From positions 1,799,676-1,863,675 of the forward strand of contig BCGN01000004.1 of assembly GCA_001599295.1 (NCBI GenBank): a stretch of 64,000 nucleotides of DNA. The letters run 5' to 3'. Below, one piece after another: positions 441 to 39,065 of the stretch. Within the stretch, counting starts at the first letter, position 1, and every line of letters begins with the position of its first letter. The stretch is from Sporopachydermia quercuum (Eukaryota). A program made the translations under genes and the position numbers. The notes below the pieces were generated by a model. That model had not been told where the DNA came from, made no database searches, and saw only the letters and a list, made by a program, of their open reading frames with translations.

Positions 441-1998
441 ATGTCGAACCTTGTCGATTTCCCAAAGTACGGAGAAGTCAAAGGTGGAGTCAAAGGAGAA
501 CCATCACCAGGGAAATCATCTTTATTAAACAAAACAAGTAAACCCTCAAGTAAACTATCAGATGCTCAATTGAGATATCTGCCATTTGGGAAAATAGTCC
601 AGGCGCATAAAATGCCTGTAACCTGTGTGAAATTCTCCCCTGATGGTAAATTGATAGCAACGTGTTGTAAGTATAATTTTACTGGTAGTCACTGTGACCC
701 ATGATTTTCTACATATTCCAATTATTTACTAACATTTTCCAGCTGCTGACAGATTAATAAAACTGTGGGATGGCAAAACGTTCCAGTTTCACTGCGAACT
801 AGAAGGACATCAATCAGGCATCTCTGATTTATGCTGGTCCCCGGATTCAAAGTACATTGCATCAGCATCTGATGACACTACTATTCGAGTTTGGTCTGTC
901 GAAAACTTTAGACAATTACGTGTTCTGAGAGGTCACACCTATCATGTTCTGTGTGTGGAATTCAATTATCGGGGTAACATTCTTGTTTCAGGTTCTGCTG
1001 ACGAATCTATTCGTATCTGGGATGTGTTCCGGGGTGAATGTCTCAAGACACTTTCTGCTCATTCTGATCCTATAAGTACTGTTGATATCTGCTGGGATGG
1101 CACTTTGATTGCATCAGGGTCTTATGATGGATTGATCCGTTTATTTGATACCGATACTGGCCAATGTTTGAAAACTCTGATATGCAATTCTCAAACCGTA
1201 CCCAATATTGGTTCAGTGCCAGTGTCTTATTTGAAATTTTCACCTAATGGCAAATACATCCTAGCATCTACACTTGATAGTTCTATCAAACTATGGGATT
1301 ATATGCAGAACAAGGTAATCAAAACCTATGAAGGATTAAATATAGTGACAGAGTTTCCTTTGAGCCCAGAAGAAAGGAAACGTGAAACAGAGCTGATGAA
1401 ACGCGAATCTGAAATGCTAGCAAGGGAATCAGAACAAGAATTACAACGGGTGAACAAAAGGAAAGAGCTTGAAGAGTCTTTGTTCCGAGCAGCACAACAT
1501 CAATTCAAGTATGTAAAAGAAGGTGCTGTTTCTACCAATTATGACTGGAATGCTCTCCCTGCTGACCCTACTAGTTTCGATAGTACAAACATCACTAATG
1601 AAATGTCAGAAGATAGTATAGGTAGTAGGAAGTATAAAAGAAAGAGGAAAGATGTGAAGAGGAGGGAATTCATGTCAGAAGAGGAAACTCAAGAAGACCA
1701 TGATCATCAAAAAGACGAGATTGGAAGTAAGGATTCAAAGTCTGATAAACTTCCGGCATTTCAACTAGGTAAGCTCTCGTGTGGAACCAAATTTCTAATA
1801 AAAGCAACTGAACCTGCCATTGTTTCTGGGTCAGAGATAGGCATTGTGTATATATGGAATGTTCAGACGAAGAAGCTGGTGTCGTTACTAAGAGGATTTG
1901 AAGGTCCTGTATATAACATAGATTCCAATAGTGATGAGAGCTTTCTAGTTGCATGTGGAGATGATGGAGATATCAGGATATGGAAGAAGGATTTATAG
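441..1998 (+). CDS. SWD3: WD40-repeat protein, WDR5/Swd3 (COMPASS subunit)-like; exons 441-666 and 743-1998, 493 aa
   Basis: Splicing joins VKFSPDGKLIATCS|ADRLIKLWD in frame. WDR5-like repeats include SGSADESIRIWD, SGSYDGLIRLFD and KFSPNGKYILASTLDSSIKLWDY. Confidence 0.85.
667..742 (+). other. spliceosomal intron (76 nt) of the SWD3-like gene
   Basis: GTAAGT donor, TACTAAC at 727-733, CAG acceptor; removal restores the WD40 frame. Confidence 0.92.
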
Positions 1999-25640: not shown

Positions 25641-28600
25641 TCATTCATCTTTAACCATCTCATTGAAACCAGCGGTAGAAAGAGAAGTACCGTTAACAGT
25701 ATTCACACTGCTGCTGCTTTCATTGCCAGTAAATGTATTGGCACGCTTCCTCTGCTGCTGCTGCTGCTGTTGCTTTCCTGCTTCATAAAATTCAAACTGG
25801 ATAGCTCGTTTCAACGAGAAAACATCTCCTCCTACTGGAAAATTTAAATTAGAAGCTGAGTTATTATTGGATTTACTTCCAAGTCCTGCGGTAGTCCCTG
25901 TGCTGAAAAAAGCACTGCTTCCGTTTCCTGGTGTGGAAGTAGTTCCTGTAGTATTGTTGTTACTGCCACCACTAGTTCCAGTACCATTCTTCTTATCAAA
26001 CTCATCAGGCGTCATAATGCTAATATTTGATACTGAATTACTAATTGGCAGTCTTAGAGGATACTTGCTAGCAGCCAATGAAGCAGCAACTGATTCAACG
26101 TCCATTTCCTTGTTCCCATTGCTTTTACCTATTGAATGATTCACTGATGTTTCCAAGCTTTTACCTGAACCTGAAATTTTCCCTGCATTTCCAATGCTTA
26201 TTCCTACCGTTCCTATATTAGATCCTGCTGATATAGGTGTATTGACACTTCCATTAATATTGTTATTACAATTAGTATTGACTCCGTCCGAGAGGCCAAC
26301 AGTTGATATTGGTGTAGAAGAGTTGATTGACAGTTCTTTCCAGTCGAATCCTTCCTCACCATTTAATCCATCTCCCGTACTGCTGCTCTTTCCTACCCCG
26401 GGACCAATACTGTTCTGTCTTATTGGTGTGGTAAAACTTGACGCTGATTGGTTTCTTTTACTGGTTGTGATGCTCAAGCTTCGCTCTTCGCCTTGAAATA
26501 AAGCCTTTTCAGCTGCGCCAGCAGCTATCTTCGCTTTATGCTTATCCAGAGTTTTATCTCTATTCCTGATGGTGGAATCTGAGTCTTTGCCAATAGGATT
26601 TCCAGTACTATCAAACAGTTTTCTAACCGGAATGTCGAAATAGTTGCTTTTCTGTTTATTTCCCGAGCCGGAATGCGAAATCGAGTGTGCATTTACGTGT
26701 GAATTGAATTGAAACCCGCCAGAACTTGGTGGGGCAGACCTCAATGAAGGCTCCATACCTGGTGGAAATGACTGTGGGATGCTCAATCGTGGCACTGGTG
26801 CTTTTTTGGTTCTGGCAAGATTCATGTTTACACGGCCACTATCACCAGTTATAGTGTTGCCACTGCTATTGCTGTTGTTCATGCTGTTTGCCATAGTTAT
26901 ATCTGCTCTAGAATCACCATAGACGTCAGGAATGTTCACCAGAGATCGCGTAGGCCGCAGAATGGACTCAGACAATGGTTCTGTCTCATACCCATTGACT
27001 CCTGTGTATGGATACTGCTGAGAATGAGAATTAGAATGCAGATATTGGTTGGAATAGGACGAAAGCGAATAGCAAGAGTGGGAATGCGCGTTTGAATAAG
27101 GATAGGAAGATGAATCAATTGTATGGTCACTATTGGTATCGCTGATAGTAGAAGCACTGTTGGCTGGTGATACGCTTTCATTGCTTTCGTTGCTTCCACT
27201 GATTAATCCTGTGATTCCCTTTCCTTGATGTCCATTGCCGCCTTCCTGCACAGCATTTCCCTTAGAATTCATGTTGGAATGTAAATGGTTATAGTTATGG
27301 TTATGGTGATCTGATTGAGCCTGGGACAGCATTAGAGATTCTTCATTTAATAATTGAGTAAACCGTTCAAAGTTCTGCATGGAATTAGAGGCATATGACT
27401 CTCCTGATGGAAGTCCTGTTGCAAGTCCTGACGAAATGTCATTGATAACTTTAGCAACGCTTGTTTGCTTCTCTTCGTACCCGTTGAATGTGCCATCGCG
27501 AAAATTCCACAGTAAAACAGTGTTCCTCGTAGTTGTTTCTGGCTTGGAATTGGAATTAGAGCTTGAACTATCCCCAATGCTAATATCGTGTAGTTTACTG
27601 CCATTATCGTCATCATTTATGTTCTGCCGGTAACTGATTATTTGCACGATAACCAACTTCCTTAACAGCTCATCTCTATCATCGGCAACGAACATCCCTG
27701 TATGCGGGCACTGGCTATCTCTTTGCTGGAGCCAGTATAAATAGCTACCCAGAAAATCTCTTGCGCAGGGGACAACCAGCATGCTATGGCCGGTTGATTG
27801 GTCCACGGGGATGGCACCTTTGAGGATTTCTTCTTTGAAGCTGATTTCTCTGTTGCCCCGGTAGATTCTTGTCGATAGGAACCATTGGCCTTTAGAGCTG
27901 TTACTATTGCTATTAAGATTACTATTATTGTTATTGCCGTTGCAGCTGGTGTTGCCACTTCCAGGATTTGATACTAATAGTTCAACCTCAGAGCTGAAGA
28001 TTCCGCCAATTGTTTCCATTGACTGATTGTGGAAAGCTATAGGCGTGTTTAAATGATAAATAGCAGTAGGATCGCTGCTGATGCACACATCTACTACTTG
28101 AGGAGTAATCAAACAAGCCTGTTGGAGAGAAGACAAGGAAACCGTATTGAGAGTGCCAGATTGCAAGGTAGAATCAGTGAATTCGCTGTAGTACTGTTTT
28201 GATCGACTATCGCTATATGTTATAAAAGCTTTGATAGGCAACAATTGCATTGAATCACGGGGACTTTTACTGGTTGAGAATCCCTGGTGCTGATGATCAA
28301 ATTCCTCGTTCTCATTCACTTTCTCAAGCAAGTTTACACTCATATTACTATTCAAGTTGCTATTCATTCTTGCTAAAGGAGATTTCCCTGTGCTAGCTGT
28401 TGATATGCTATTAGGAGATTCACCATTAGCAGAAGTACTTCCAACGCCATTAACTATTATATTCATCAGCTCTTTATCATGAGTATATTGTCGTTTAAAC
28501 ACTTGGAGCCTATTACTAATCTGCTGTCGCGTTCTATAATGACCGGTTTTCTCTCTAATGTACTGAGAGATCATCTCATTTCTGCCAACAGTCTTACCGC

Positions 28601-29552
28601 CTTCTCTTTGGTCTTTATAATTGAAACCAAACTTTGGATACTTTCTTAAAGCTTCAACAAGATATCTATCGATTGTAGGAGTCCAAACTTCCGATTTAGC
28701 GAGTTTCTGATCGGTTGATCGTTTGATAGATGGTAAATTATCCTTCAAAGGAGATACTTCTGCAAGTGGAGTTCTGGAAGCAGAAGAAGTTCGAGAATAT
28801 GTTTCCGACAGGGATCTCGTTCGCAGGGGAATTGTATGGGAAGACACTGGCACTGTAGAAGGACCCGTTGGAGCTGTGGTCGGCACCTGTCTTTGGGTAT
28901 ACATATAACGGCCCATAGCAACCGGGGACAAGTTCACGGGAGTTGAATCAGCAGATTTGGTGATCACGTTGGAATTGACGTCGGCATTGCTGTTTCCATT
29001 GGTGAAAATATCAGCAGAAGACTCAGAAGAGACTGAAGATCCCGCCGAAGCAGTGAACGTGGTAGTCACCAACGAAGATGTAGACGATCCTGTGTTACAG
29101 GAACTAATTCTAGTTGGAATTCCTGTGCTAGCTTTCCCCATCACCACGTTAGAAGCTGTAGCAGATTCTGCTTCCTTATTGACGCTGATATTACTAGCAT
29201 TATTCTCTCGCTGTATTGGCGACATCACTAGGTAGTTATGTATTTTTGACTGCTGGAAAGGAGAAGCTTGGATATCGTCAAAAAACATCTCTGTCGCATT
29301 TGTCGAGTCGTTGAGCCAGATGTAATCCAGATGGTTTGAAGAAGGGGTTCCTGAACCGGTTATTGAGTTGTTGATTGATTCTGACGCTGTTGTAGTATCG
29401 CATGAAGAGTGCGGAGTGTTAGGCGGTAGAGTATGACCATCGTGATGTGATACGGCGCTTATAGAACCAGCGTCGAGCACTGGAGCTTCTGGGGTATCAA
29501 AATCCATCATTATATCGGTCTCAGATGCTTCCTGAGGTGTGACTGAAGCCAT
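25641..29552 (-). CDS. TEA/ATTS-domain transcription factor (AbaA/Tec1 family), 1303 aa
   Basis: TEA domain EVWTPTIDRYLVEAL...GRNEMISQYIREKTGHYRTRQQISNRLQVFK (~28490-28695); extensive S/N-rich regions. Confidence 0.88.
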   Translation of the reverse strand: MASVTPQEASETDIMMDFDTPEAPVLDAGSISAVSHHDGHTLPPNTPHSSCDTTTASESINNSITGSGTPSSNHLDYIWLNDSTNATEMFFDDIQASPFQQSKIHNYLVMSPIQRENNASNISVNKEAESATASNVVMGKASTGIPTRISSCNTGSSTSSLVTTTFTASAGSSVSSESSADIFTNGNSNADVNSNVITKSADSTPVNLSPVAMGRYMYTQRQVPTTAPTGPSTVPVSSHTIPLRTRSLSETYSRTSSASRTPLAEVSPLKDNLPSIKRSTDQKLAKSEVWTPTIDRYLVEALRKYPKFGFNYKDQREGGKTVGRNEMISQYIREKTGHYRTRQQISNRLQVFKRQYTHDKELMNIIVNGVGSTSANGESPNSISTASTGKSPLARMNSNLNSNMSVNLLEKVNENEEFDHQHQGFSTSKSPRDSMQLLPIKAFITYSDSRSKQYYSEFTDSTLQSGTLNTVSLSSLQQACLITPQVVDVCISSDPTAIYHLNTPIAFHNQSMETIGGIFSSEVELLVSNPGSGNTSCNGNNNNSNLNSNSNSSKGQWFLSTRIYRGNREISFKEEILKGAIPVDQSTGHSMLVVPCARDFLGSYLYWLQQRDSQCPHTGMFVADDRDELLRKLVIVQIISYRQNINDDDNGSKLHDISIGDSSSSNSNSKPETTTRNTVLLWNFRDGTFNGYEEKQTSVAKVINDISSGLATGLPSGESYASNSMQNFERFTQLLNEESLMLSQAQSDHHNHNYNHLHSNMNSKGNAVQEGGNGHQGKGITGLISGSNESNESVSPANSASTISDTNSDHTIDSSSYPYSNAHSHSCYSLSSYSNQYLHSNSHSQQYPYTGVNGYETEPLSESILRPTRSLVNIPDVYGDSRADITMANSMNNSNSSGNTITGDSGRVNMNLARTKKAPVPRLSIPQSFPPGMEPSLRSAPPSSGGFQFNSHVNAHSISHSGSGNKQKSNYFDIPVRKLFDSTGNPIGKDSDSTIRNRDKTLDKHKAKIAAGAAEKALFQGEERSLSITTSKRNQSASSFTTPIRQNSIGPGVGKSSSTGDGLNGEEGFDWKELSINSSTPISTVGLSDGVNTNCNNNINGSVNTPISAGSNIGTVGISIGNAGKISGSGKSLETSVNHSIGKSNGNKEMDVESVAASLAASKYPLRLPISNSVSNISIMTPDEFDKKNGTGTSGGSNNNTTGTTSTPGNGSSAFFSTGTTAGLGSKSNNNSASNLNFPVGGDVFSLKRAIQFEFYEAGKQQQQQQQRKRANTFTGNESSSSVNTVNGTSLSTAGFNEMVKDE

Positions 29553-36017: not shown

Positions 36018-39000
36018 TCACATAACCTCCATCACACTTGAGAATCCACCAAATTCCAAACCAAAACTAATCAAAGTATCAATAATATCAGTTCTTCTTT
36101 TATAAGCAATTTTTCCGTCAGATCCTTTATTACCACCAATCCAAATTCTCGCTATTCCTGCTAGCTTCTCAAGTTTAAACCTATCTTGGTCACTTAGTAA
36201 ATTATTATCATACAATTCAGGAGAGTCACTAATCTTTTTTACTATCGTCGATAAGCAATCAAATAATGAAGCAAATCCTAAAATCCCCATATCATCAATT
36301 GATTCCATCTTTAATTTGCCTAGAAAATGTAGACCATTTGATAAATCATCACGAATAAGGAAGTTATTAGCAAAAGCACAGTAAAGAGCAACTTGATAAT
36401 CTCGAGAAATTGCCAATTCATTAATAGAATCATCTTTAATTAATTTAACTGCTTTGTTCAAAGAGTTAAAATTATCTCGCTTATTACCATTGAATGTTGC
36501 ATGAGCAATAACAGCTCTTCGGTGAACCATTGAAAGTTCAGGAGCAATGTCAACACATTTCTTCAACATATGATCAATATTGAGCGTTGATTTCTCTTCT
36601 AACTTGCAAACTAACACTTCAACAAGAATGTAATTAGCATAGAAAGCTGCAATTATGTCCAACGGTGAATATATTGAGTGATCAGTGAGAATTGATCCAT
36701 ACCCTTGTAAATCAAAGCAATCTTCACATTTATAACTCAATGGTTTATTGGAAACAATATTTGAGAGCATCTGAATGATCTCCTGGTTGTCAAGAATATC
36801 ACCATTTAATGCTAGATACTTTAAATATGAAGCTTGAGAAACTGATTCCTCCTTATATTCAGTTCTTTCTTGTTCGTTTTGATCATCATATAGGCCAAAA
36901 GATGATAAATACATTTTCTTTGCTTTTTTCCAATAAAACTTTGACAGTCTATTCATCATTGTTTTTATTAAATAGCTACCAGAAAGGTTCGAAATCACTT
37001 TGGCNTGAATTGCTCTTGTCAGATTTCTACTAACGGTATCCGGCAATAGTATTCCAATGAAAAACGTATAAATCAGCNTTAAGATTGAGAAGTTATTATC
37101 TCCACCAGCAAGTTGGGCTTCAATCGCTTTCTCCCATAAAGAAGCCTCTACTAAGTTCAGCTCTTTAGTGTTAAAGACAGTGACAACGCTCTTTAACGCT
37201 TCATCACCAAACAACAATTTGACTACAACTAGGAATATCACTTTAGAAAACATGATAATAACGTTGAAGATGTTGTTGTTCTTACTGGGTAAAGCTTCAT
37301 TTTCAGTACAATGTAGCCAAATCTTCTTCCGGGTCTCCATTGGGGTTGAGTTTTTTCTCATTCTACTAACAGACTGTGTGAATTGTTTTTCATTCGCATC
37401 NTTTGAACTTGATGAAAACACATCTGAGAAAATATAGAATATAGTTGAGAGGATCAATCCAATTTTCAGAAGAGGCATAGAAGATTCAGAGAAGAATTTG
37501 CCAGCAGTAACAGTAGATTTCGAAGCTGTGGTAGAAATAGATTGAAATCCAACCATTGGGAAAGCAAACAAACCTCTGGTATCATAATTAGAGAAATCAT
37601 CAATCATGCCTGAAGCAACGACACCTGCCATTGTTCCCAATAGTATTTTAGACCTATTAGACGTTGGNGAAATTGAGTTATCATTACAGGTGGAATTGTC
37701 ATTTGAAGCGTTATTCGGACTGATATTAGTGCTACCACTAGCAATTCTTTCATTTGGTGAACTGGAAGCTGATGAGGCTGATGAATTCAGGTGACCAGGT
37801 GATACAACAGAATCAATGGATGATGTAGGAGAAAATGGTGATGACGATTTTCTCTTATTGTTTCTGTTGTCGTTAGTAGAACTGGTAGGGCTGTTCAAGT
37901 TATCGAAAACAAAATCTGAGCTAGTGATAAGTAATTTACTTTTCAATAGTTGATTCTCCTGTAATAGCTTTTCATTCTTGGACTCTAAATGATGAATATA
38001 CTCAGTAGCTTTTGTTAAAACTGTAGCTTTATTCAATTTAGTTGCTGGGGCTAGTCCATCGAGATTGTCAACAGTAGATTGCTCATCAGAATTAACTAAT
38101 ACTTTCAATGATGGTACGCTATCTCTAAGAGCAATGATTTTATCATTGATGTTAGTTCTATATCTTTTCTCGACCATGTTGTGAGCAGATTTTTCTTTTC
38201 TTGCTGGTTTAACTACTTTACCTGTTGTCCTATCAATCGTGGCATGAAAAGTTATAGCGTTAGTACTTATATTCAATTTTGCTGCCGCAGTTGTAAGACT
38301 GCTGTTTCTACCAGATGCCAGCGGTTTATTTGATTTTGATCCAGTAATTGGCTGGGGGGCTGACAGAGACCTTGGCTGGGTCAAAACATGTTTCAAAGGT
38401 TCTGGGGATAATAACTCCTTTTTGATGTTGGTATTTTTACTCACATTGCCAAAAGCTTCTCCTGATGCCAATGAAGTTGAAGAAGAATAATTTGAACGAC
38501 TGATCATCGAATTTGAGGTATATGATGAATTTGTTAGAGAAACCGTCGACTCTGATACTGAAACTTGGTCATCCATTGAAATTGAGAATGGTGATAGCTG
38601 TTCTTTTGTTATTCCCTCCGATTTGAATGGTGCATTGATTGTTGATTGAAATTCAAATTCATTCGAGTTGTTTACGCAATTATCTGATTTTGAGGAGAGT
38701 TTTGATCCTCCAAATAGAGGATTCATAAAATCTTGTGATTCTACACCCCAAGGGTTATTATTGATGTCAGTTTGACTCTCTAATAAAAAGTTATGTTGAT
38801 GGTAGAGTTCATTAGTAGAAGCAGCTGCGGTATTGTTTGGCTGAGAAGTATGAAGATTGTTGATTGATTGGAAGTTATCTTTCATATCAATGTCATAAGG
38901 AAAGTTTTCATATTCCGGAATGTTGCCGAAGATTTCTTCTTCTACACTTCTTTCATTTGTAGAAAATGAAGAGTTAGAATTAATGCTTGGTTTATTTTCA

Positions 39001-39065
39001 GTTGAAGAGTTGATTGACGCTAAGAAGGCATCACAGTCTTCTATTGAGAAGGGTGAGCCTGACAT
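36018..39065 (-). CDS. SRE1: sterol regulatory element-binding protein (SREBP; Sre1/SrbA-like): bHLH-ZIP, TM hairpin and DUF2014-like C-terminus
   Basis: HNMVEKRYRTNINDKI with the SREBP-diagnostic Tyr; LNKATVLTKATEYI; hydrophobic KILLGTMAGVVA...RGLFAFP and LLKIGLILSTIFYIF; WEKAIEAQLAGGD. Confidence 0.9.
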   Translation of the reverse strand: MSGSPFSIEDCDAFLASINSSTENKPSINSNSSFSTNERSVEEEIFGNIPEYENFPYDIDMKDNFQSINNLHTSQPNNTAAASTNELYHQHNFLLESQTDINNNPWGVESQDFMNPLFGGSKLSSKSDNCVNNSNEFEFQSTINAPFKSEGITKEQLSPFSISMDDQVSVSESTVSLTNSSYTSNSMISRSNYSSSTSLASGEAFGNVSKNTNIKKELLSPEPLKHVLTQPRSLSAPQPITGSKSNKPLASGRNSSLTTAAAKLNISTNAITFHATIDRTTGKVVKPARKEKSAHNMVEKRYRTNINDKIIALRDSVPSLKVLVNSDEQSTVDNLDGLAPATKLNKATVLTKATEYIHHLESKNEKLLQENQLLKSKLLITSSDFVFDNLNSPTSSTNDNRNNKRKSSSPFSPTSSIDSVVSPGHLNSSASSASSSPNERIASGSTNISPNNASNDNSTCNDNSIXPTSNRSKILLGTMAGVVASGMIDDFSNYDTRGLFAFPMVGFQSISTTASKSTVTAGKFFSESSMPLLKIGLILSTIFYIFSDVFSSSSXDANEKQFTQSVSRMRKNSTPMETRKKIWLHCTENEALPSKNNNIFNVIIMFSKVIFLVVVKLLFGDEALKSVVTVFNTKELNLVEASLWEKAIEAQLAGGDNNFSILXLIYTFFIGILLPDTVSRNLTRAIXAKVISNLSGSYLIKTMMNRLSKFYWKKAKKMYLSSFGLYDDQNEQERTEYKEESVSQASYLKYLALNGDILDNQEIIQMLSNIVSNKPLSYKCEDCFDLQGYGSILTDHSIYSPLDIIAAFYANYILVEVLVCKLEEKSTLNIDHMLKKCVDIAPELSMVHRRAVIAHATFNGNKRDNFNSLNKAVKLIKDDSINELAISRDYQVALYCAFANNFLIRDDLSNGLHFLGKLKMESIDDMGILGFASLFDCLSTIVKKISDSPELYDNNLLSDQDRFKLEKLAGIARIWIGGNKGSDGKIAYKRRTDIIDTLISFGLEFGGFSSVMEVM

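Follow-up and report, generated by a model that had tools for sequence, protein, structure and literature searches.

Does the TEA/ATTS transcription factor encoded at this locus of Sporopachydermia quercuum carry, beyond its DNA-binding domain, a counterpart of the YAP-binding domain (YBD) of animal TEAD proteins, and does that counterpart offer a site for lipidation? We addressed both questions in a stretch of 64,000 nucleotides from assembly GCA_001599295.1 (contig BCGN01000004.1, positions 1,799,676 to 1,863,675 of the forward strand), called the window throughout, in which the factor is encoded by an open reading frame (ORF) on the minus strand. The ORF probably encodes a fungal-type TEA/ATTS factor, of the Tec1/AbaA kind, in which a TEA domain is combined with a very diverged homologue of the TEAD/Scalloped YBD that would act as a docking platform for a co-regulator.

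The segment downstream of the TEA domain

Membership of the TEA/ATTS family is given by PF01285, which scored 67.1 bits on the ORF against a cut-off of 25.1 and was the sole Pfam domain above threshold. A phmmer search of PDB sequences with the ORF matched TEA-domain structures of TEF-1 and TEF-3 (E 7e-11). The YBD-like domain follows the TEA domain in the same polypeptide, and its C-terminal edge is approximate, with the modelled segment ending at residue 700 (Table 1). The first-pass annotation of the locus had listed 7 hydrophobic blocks downstream of the TEA domain, and all are present in the claimed order across residues 437-685 (27498-28244), with N/S-rich low-complexity stretches between them.

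Relatives of the segment were recovered from metagenome contigs. A degenerate DNA pattern of the TEA-domain core, scanned over these contigs, gave at least 118 loci, and extension in the matched frame yielded, among the loci listed, 24 ORFs in which the match is followed by at least 280 residues. Pfam was run on 12 of the 24, with 8 encoding a TEA domain and a YBD (PF17725, 78.9-235.5 bits), 3 encoding a TEA domain only (L044, L076, and L079), and 1 encoding 2 TEA domains and no YBD (L050). The C-terminal parts of L044, L076, and L079 were linked by tblastn to one another and to L075, L038, L062, L027, and L061. A hidden Markov model (HMM) of 6 family sequences then brought in L004 (E 2.7e-34) and the pair L052/L066 (E about 1e-11), and it also matched one true TEAD, L016 (E 0.0086). 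The exon fragments L035 and L006 matched the family HMM as well and were excluded from the alignments. The resulting 11 homologues form 7 lineages by pairwise identity, namely L044, L076, L079, L061, L004, the L075 group (L075, L027, L038, and L062, 81-92% identical), and the L052 group (L052 and L066, 97% identical).

The contigs are unlabelled; AbaA- and Tec1-like motifs suggest that the 11 homologues are fungal in origin, and we take their ORFs to be of the Tec1/AbaA type. The motifs of the VQEI...LLWKF type that had been expected of AbaA proteins were found in L004, L052, and L066, as VQEL or MQEI together with LLWKF or LVWKF. The expectation that the domain is under-recognised was also borne out, with PF17725 matching none of 8 fungal-type domain segments at E<=10 and Pfam annotating nothing beyond the TEA domain in 8 fungal-type sequences. 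A match of DUF3432 on L076 (E 0.0012) lay below the cut-off and was disregarded. L050 (549-2879, plus strand) is a 777-residue metatranscriptome ORF with 2 TEA domains (2 Pfam stretches), no YBD, and a coiled-coil-like C-terminal region, an architecture that neither TEAD nor the fungal type shows.

The window segment belongs to this fungal-type family, as judged from an HMM match and a shared core of invariant residues. The 6-sequence HMM, from which the window was left out, matched residues 447-614 of the window protein, P0001 (15.8 bits, E 3.5e-7 for one target). On the isolated segment it scored 18.8 bits, a score reached by none of 1000 global shuffles (maximum 5.2) and none of 1000 local shuffles (maximum 8.8); the ordered-block pattern exceeds chance. 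In MAFFT the segment was collinear with each of the 11 homologues and shared 13-20% identity with them, and F443, P484, Y564, Q643, and W682 were invariant in all 12 sequences. The window thus shares the ordered motifs of the fungal-type C-terminal domain and differs from the rest as its most diverged member, with ITP for RFP, DFL for DFW, and Cys for the usual Phe at 596.

The link from this family to TEAD was made by profile-profile alignment. We used 3 alignments, the family without the window (A1), 20 TEAD YBDs from the 24 long ORFs, excluding L044, L076, L079, and L050 (A2), and the window with the 11 homologues (A3). A1 aligned with A2 at a hhalign probability of 59.7% (E 8.9e-5, 198 columns), and A3 with A2 at 83.3% (E 8.6e-6, score 44.9), in 186 collinear columns, starting at the first strand and ending with the last conserved block. 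As a control for the latter, 200 column shuffles had a mean score of 12.8 (standard deviation 2.3, maximum 20.4), and the reversed alignment scored 11.6. The A3 versus A2 alignment is significant and spans the whole domain, which argues for remote homology. Further, the A3 profile was searched against 177,635 distinct PDB sequences, and the top 11 of the 15 matches at E<=10 were TEAD2 YBD chains, in register.

The block pairings with TEAD proposed in the first-pass annotation were largely reproduced by hhalign (6 of 7), but block 6 (ELLRKLVIVQIIS) came out 6 residues off. The automatic alignments (MAFFT and hhalign) set Q643 opposite the TEAD Gln and the earlier register sets Q637 there; in either register a Gln faces the Gln conserved in the family and in TEAD. 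The predicted helix 625-630 and strand 633-643 are also compatible with the Q637 register. HMM searches with the C-terminal third alone gave a weak match of the LLWNF block only (5.8 bits) and favoured neither register of block 6.

A structure of the segment was predicted with AlphaFold2 from A3, without templates and with no TEAD sequence in the input. The modelled elements run in the order 2 strands, 2 helices, 6 strands, 2 helices, and 2 strands, a predicted beta-sandwich with helical hairpins for which the TEAD YBD is the best structural match. Foldseek found 170 PDB matches at E<=0.001, and the best 40 of the 170 were all YBDs of TEAD1-4 or Scalloped (best E 1.7e-6, probability 1.00, template-modelling score 0.52-0.58 normalised to the target, identity 8-12%). 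The top matches in VIA-align were likewise TEAD YBDs, with TEAD 3.6 Z units over the next match. We count the model and its Foldseek matches as corroboration of the profile result and not as independent proof, because the model is of moderate confidence and AlphaFold2 was trained with TEAD structures.

In comparison with the TEAD/Scalloped YBD (PF17725; PDB 5dq8, 5emv, 9neo, and 8a8q), the window domain likewise follows a TEA domain, its model has the same order of strands and helices, the 2 are collinear over about 186 columns, and core positions pair as F443 with Phe/Tyr, P484 with Pro, and W682 with Phe. It differs in that identity is only 9-14%, the Pfam model is blind to it, the acyl-acceptor column holds R598, Tyr replaces the second conserved Cys, and 2 long low-complexity loops are inserted. 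The lipid-binding beta-sandwiches of PDE6-delta, UNC119, and RhoGDI are also among the closest known systems. At the level of profiles and predicted structure, then, the protein has a YBD-type sandwich downstream of its TEA DNA-binding domain, and the sandwich belongs to a family that Pfam does not annotate.

Single-sequence searches with the segment returned no relatives. Word-indexed homologue searches of large protein collections, with the segment at near lengths, at shorter lengths, and as TEA domain plus segment, found 0 relatives; phmmer, run exhaustively over 1.84 billion representatives, found no relative and a single low-complexity match. The ESM Atlas gave no usable match for the window segment or for L076, a protein-seeded metagenome scan found 0 relatives, and tblastn of the segment against the 118 metagenome TEA loci listed gave nothing at E<=1.

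A likeness of VVPCARDFLGSYLYWLQQRDSQCP (residues 593-617, 27702-27776, minus strand) to immunoglobulin light-chain V domains, in the pattern Cys...YxxWYQQ...Q.P, accounted for 13 of the 14 phmmer matches listed (best E 0.025). We judged it to be chance because in the model the stretch is mostly loop and helix, and in the family alignment it falls on the TEAD helix.

The cysteine and the acyl-acceptor column

The first-pass annotation had pointed to a Cys in a VPC motif near the acylation site of TEAD. The codon at 27765-27767 is indeed TGC, encoding C596 of VVPCAR, and in the model C596 lies directly after the strand 589-595 and ahead of a helix starting at F600. In TEAD, a single Cys is invariant in all 20 sequences of A2; it lies within SPMCEYM of the consensus and corresponds to position 164 of the TEAD2 chain 3l15_A. 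We take this position to be Cys380 of TEAD2, which holds if the 231-residue chain begins at residue 217. TEAD2 Cys380 is given as the palmitoylation site in PMC12672301.

Three alignments, hhalign of A1 with A2, hhalign of A3 with A2, and the A3 profile with TEAD2 chains, place the TEAD acyl-Cys opposite the Ser in the PFAS-DFW motif of the family; the window has R598 there, and C596 thus stands 2 residues upstream of the acyl column. The Cys is thus literally close to the acylation site, as had been proposed, but the homologous residue is a different one, and none of the 11 distant homologues has a Cys in its column. Counted by lineage, the column of C596 is Phe in 5 of 7, with Leu and Ile in 1 each, and the conservation across AbaA/Tec1-type relatives that the annotation had wanted checked was not found among these distant homologues. 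In the acyl column, Cys occurs only in L052 and L066, which make up 1 of the 7 lineages, and the window domain lacks the conserved acyl acceptor. The second well-conserved TEAD Cys (in KVCSFGK) lies opposite Tyr564, which is invariant in the fungal-type family. In the AbaA-like L052 (966-1739, minus strand) and L066 (2333-3106, plus strand), the Cys of RINCSWW stands exactly in the column of the palmitoylated TEAD Cys.

Covalent auto-acylation at the site homologous to that of TEAD is unlikely, as far as the alignments indicate, because the acyl column is Arg here and Ser/Thr in most homologues. The idea that C596 is a TEAD-like lipidation site accordingly finds no support. A non-covalent ligand of a pocket, or acylation at C596 itself, may still occur.

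Function and competing explanations

We propose that residues 287-354 contact DNA as a TEA domain, that residues 437 to about 705 fold as a beta-sandwich with 2 helical hairpins, broken by the 2 long low-complexity loops, and that, by analogy with TEAD bound to YAP or Vgll, the sandwich may recruit a co-regulator to TEA-bound promoters. In Saccharomyces cerevisiae Tec1, the C-terminal part binds Ste12. The partner in a budding yeast would plausibly be a Ste12-type factor and not YAP/Yki. Yki/YAP is reported in holozoans only, with fungi lacking it, in PMC4761220, so the docking partner must differ from the animal one.

Several results weigh against this interpretation. PF17725 (gathering score 23 bits) gave 0 matches at E<=10 on the full protein, the segment, or its halves, which leaves the domain outside the family as strictly defined. 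A phmmer search of the PDB with the segment found no TEAD YBD and only the weak immunoglobulin matches described above, and the full protein found TEA structures only. An HMM of the 20 TEAD YBDs scored 0.2 bits on the segment, a value that global shuffles reached in 52 of 1000 cases and local shuffles in 33 of 1000. The window sequence alone aligned with A2 at a hhalign probability of 1.2%, in a different register, and with A1 at 6.7% (E 0.0054, 137 columns), in the same register. The matches of the A3 profile to TEAD2 chains, at E 0.21-0.30, are insignificant on their own. The alignment is no deeper than 7 independent lineages, every one of them recovered from metagenome contigs without labels. 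The AlphaFold2 model has a mean predicted local distance difference test (pLDDT) of 56.6 and a predicted template-modelling score of 0.56; of its 269 residues, 51 lie at 70-90, 138 at 50-70, and 80 below 50, with none at 90 or above. The residues of low pLDDT lie mainly in the 2 low-complexity loops and at the cut C-terminus, and a single-sequence model (pLDDT 34) was discarded. The docking role, in turn, is argued from analogy and from the case of Tec1 and Ste12. Homology of the segment to the TEAD YBD fold, as first suggested, consequently stands by way of intermediates only (hhalign with shuffles, AlphaFold2, Foldseek, and VIA-align), with the Pfam YBD model, phmmer, and the TEAD HMM blind to it.

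Could the likeness to TEAD be convergent or an artefact, with an unrelated beta-rich domain pushed by AlphaFold2 into a fold that it remembers? We consider this highly improbable: the profile-profile score stands about 14 standard deviations over the column shuffles and the alignment is collinear across the whole domain, the domain follows a TEA domain, as in TEAD, within one family of transcription factors, TEAD2 ranks first by the family profile in the PDB set, and the structural match to TEAD lies clear of the next by the margin in Z given above. Another reading is a decaying relic, in which the sandwich core would be a mere structural spacer that binds no partner and activity would lie in the low-complexity regions. 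The window domain is the most diverged of its family, tblastn with any homologue does not find it, its loop insertions are long, and the 1303-residue protein is mostly of low complexity. Even so, the relic is unlikely, since all 5 family-invariant core residues are retained, the ORF is unbroken over 3.9 kb, and the hydrophobic blocks are kept in order, which points to continued selection on the fold.

A further possibility is a lipid sensor, in which a central lipid pocket like that of TEAD would be retained and C596 would be S-acylated. We hold this to be distinctly unlikely, given Arg in the acyl column of the window and Ser/Thr there in 9 of the 11 homologues, Phe, Leu, or Ile and never Cys in the column of C596 in all 11, and an invariant Tyr for the second conserved TEAD Cys. 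A TEA factor with a diverged YBD-type sandwich, probably used for docking, remains the explanation that we prefer.

Locus features and evolutionary bearing

The features of the ORF are collected in Table 1. Four CTG codons lie in the YBD-like domain. At 2 of them, residues 592 (within 27750-27779) and 681 (27510-27512) on the minus strand, the homologues mostly have Leu (7 and 9 of 11, respectively), which fits the standard reading of CTG as Leu rather than the CTG=Ser yeast code. The window holds compact intronless genes at a G+C content of about 36%, which points to a budding yeast, and the ORFs near the TEA factor encode ordinary eukaryotic proteins, namely a RabGAP, a copper amine oxidase, a 2OG-Fe(II) oxygenase, an FAD fumarate-reductase-like enzyme, and a bHLH + DUF2014 protein. 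The last of these, of SREBP-like architecture, is a 1015-residue ORF (36018-39065, minus strand) that lies 2 ORFs (of at least 150 residues) from the TEA factor.

Table 1. Positions in the window of the TEA factor, its domains, hydrophobic blocks, loops, and the 2 residues discussed for lipidation.
Feature	Residues	Positions	Strand	Basis or remarks
TEA/ATTS factor ORF		25641..29552	-	1303 residues, intronless; long N/S/Q-rich low-complexity regions, mostly low-complexity protein
TEA/ATTS DNA-binding domain (predicted)	287-354	28491..28694	-	PF01285 E 1.7e-18; phmmer
YBD-like beta-sandwich domain (predicted)	437 to ~705	27438..28244	-	family HMM, hhalign, AlphaFold2, Foldseek, VIA-align
Block 1, LLPIKAFITY	437-446	28215-28244	-	
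Block 2, AIYHLNTPIAF	497-507		-	
Block 3, IFSSEVELLV	518-527		-	
Block 4, WFLSTRIYRGNREISFKEE	557-575		-	
Block 5, LVVPCARDFLGSYLYWL	592-608		-	
Block 6, ELLRKLVIVQIIS	628-640	27633-27671	-	
Block 7, TVLLWNFR	678-685	27498-27521	-	
N/S-rich loop insertion 1	533-552	27897..27956	-	disordered in the model, pLDDT <50 at segment positions 102-121; variable/gapped in alignment A3
Low-complexity loop insertion 2	645-671	27540..27620	-	pLDDT <50 at segment positions 214-240
C596 codon, TGC (Cys of VVPCAR)	596	27765..27767	-	column in 11 homologues: F x8, L x1, I x2
R598 codon, TEAD acyl-Cys column	598	27759..27761	-	column in 11 homologues: S x7, T x2, C x2

The window domain is a diverged, Pfam-unannotated variant of the known TEAD YBD. 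A current review places the homology between animal TEAD and fungal AbaA/TEC1 in the DNA-binding domain (PMC12672301), and our literature search, in the text available from the sources retrieved, returned no report of a fungal TEA factor with a YBD-like domain. Structure-based resources, such as domain classifications of the AlphaFold DB, may already display the domain.

Sd/TEAD has been traced back to an ancestor that amoebozoans, fungi, and animals share (PMC4761220, citing Sebe-Pedros et al.). We infer that the two-domain architecture of TEA and YBD-like domain is older than the split of fungi and animals. The acyl-acceptor Cys lies outside the YBD core shared in the alignments, so lipidation looks like a later addition, or like something that was lost in fungi. 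A bolder version, which we regard as rather unlikely, is that the architecture preceded YAP/Yki in the ancestor of fungi and animals and that the fungal-type domain is still a ligand- or lipid-gated docking module, acylated in some lineages (the acyl-column Cys of L052/L066; C596 here). If that were true, the inhibitor pocket of TEAD would have a fungal counterpart controlling factors of filamentation and conidiation.

If the sandwich is common to fungi too, the co-activator platform would be older than its animal ligands YAP/Yki, which bears on the evolution of the output module of the Hippo pathway. For Tec1/AbaA-type factors, which regulate filamentous growth, biofilm formation, and conidiation, the predicted domain offers a structural hypothesis of how partners may be recruited and indicates specific surfaces and residues for mutation.
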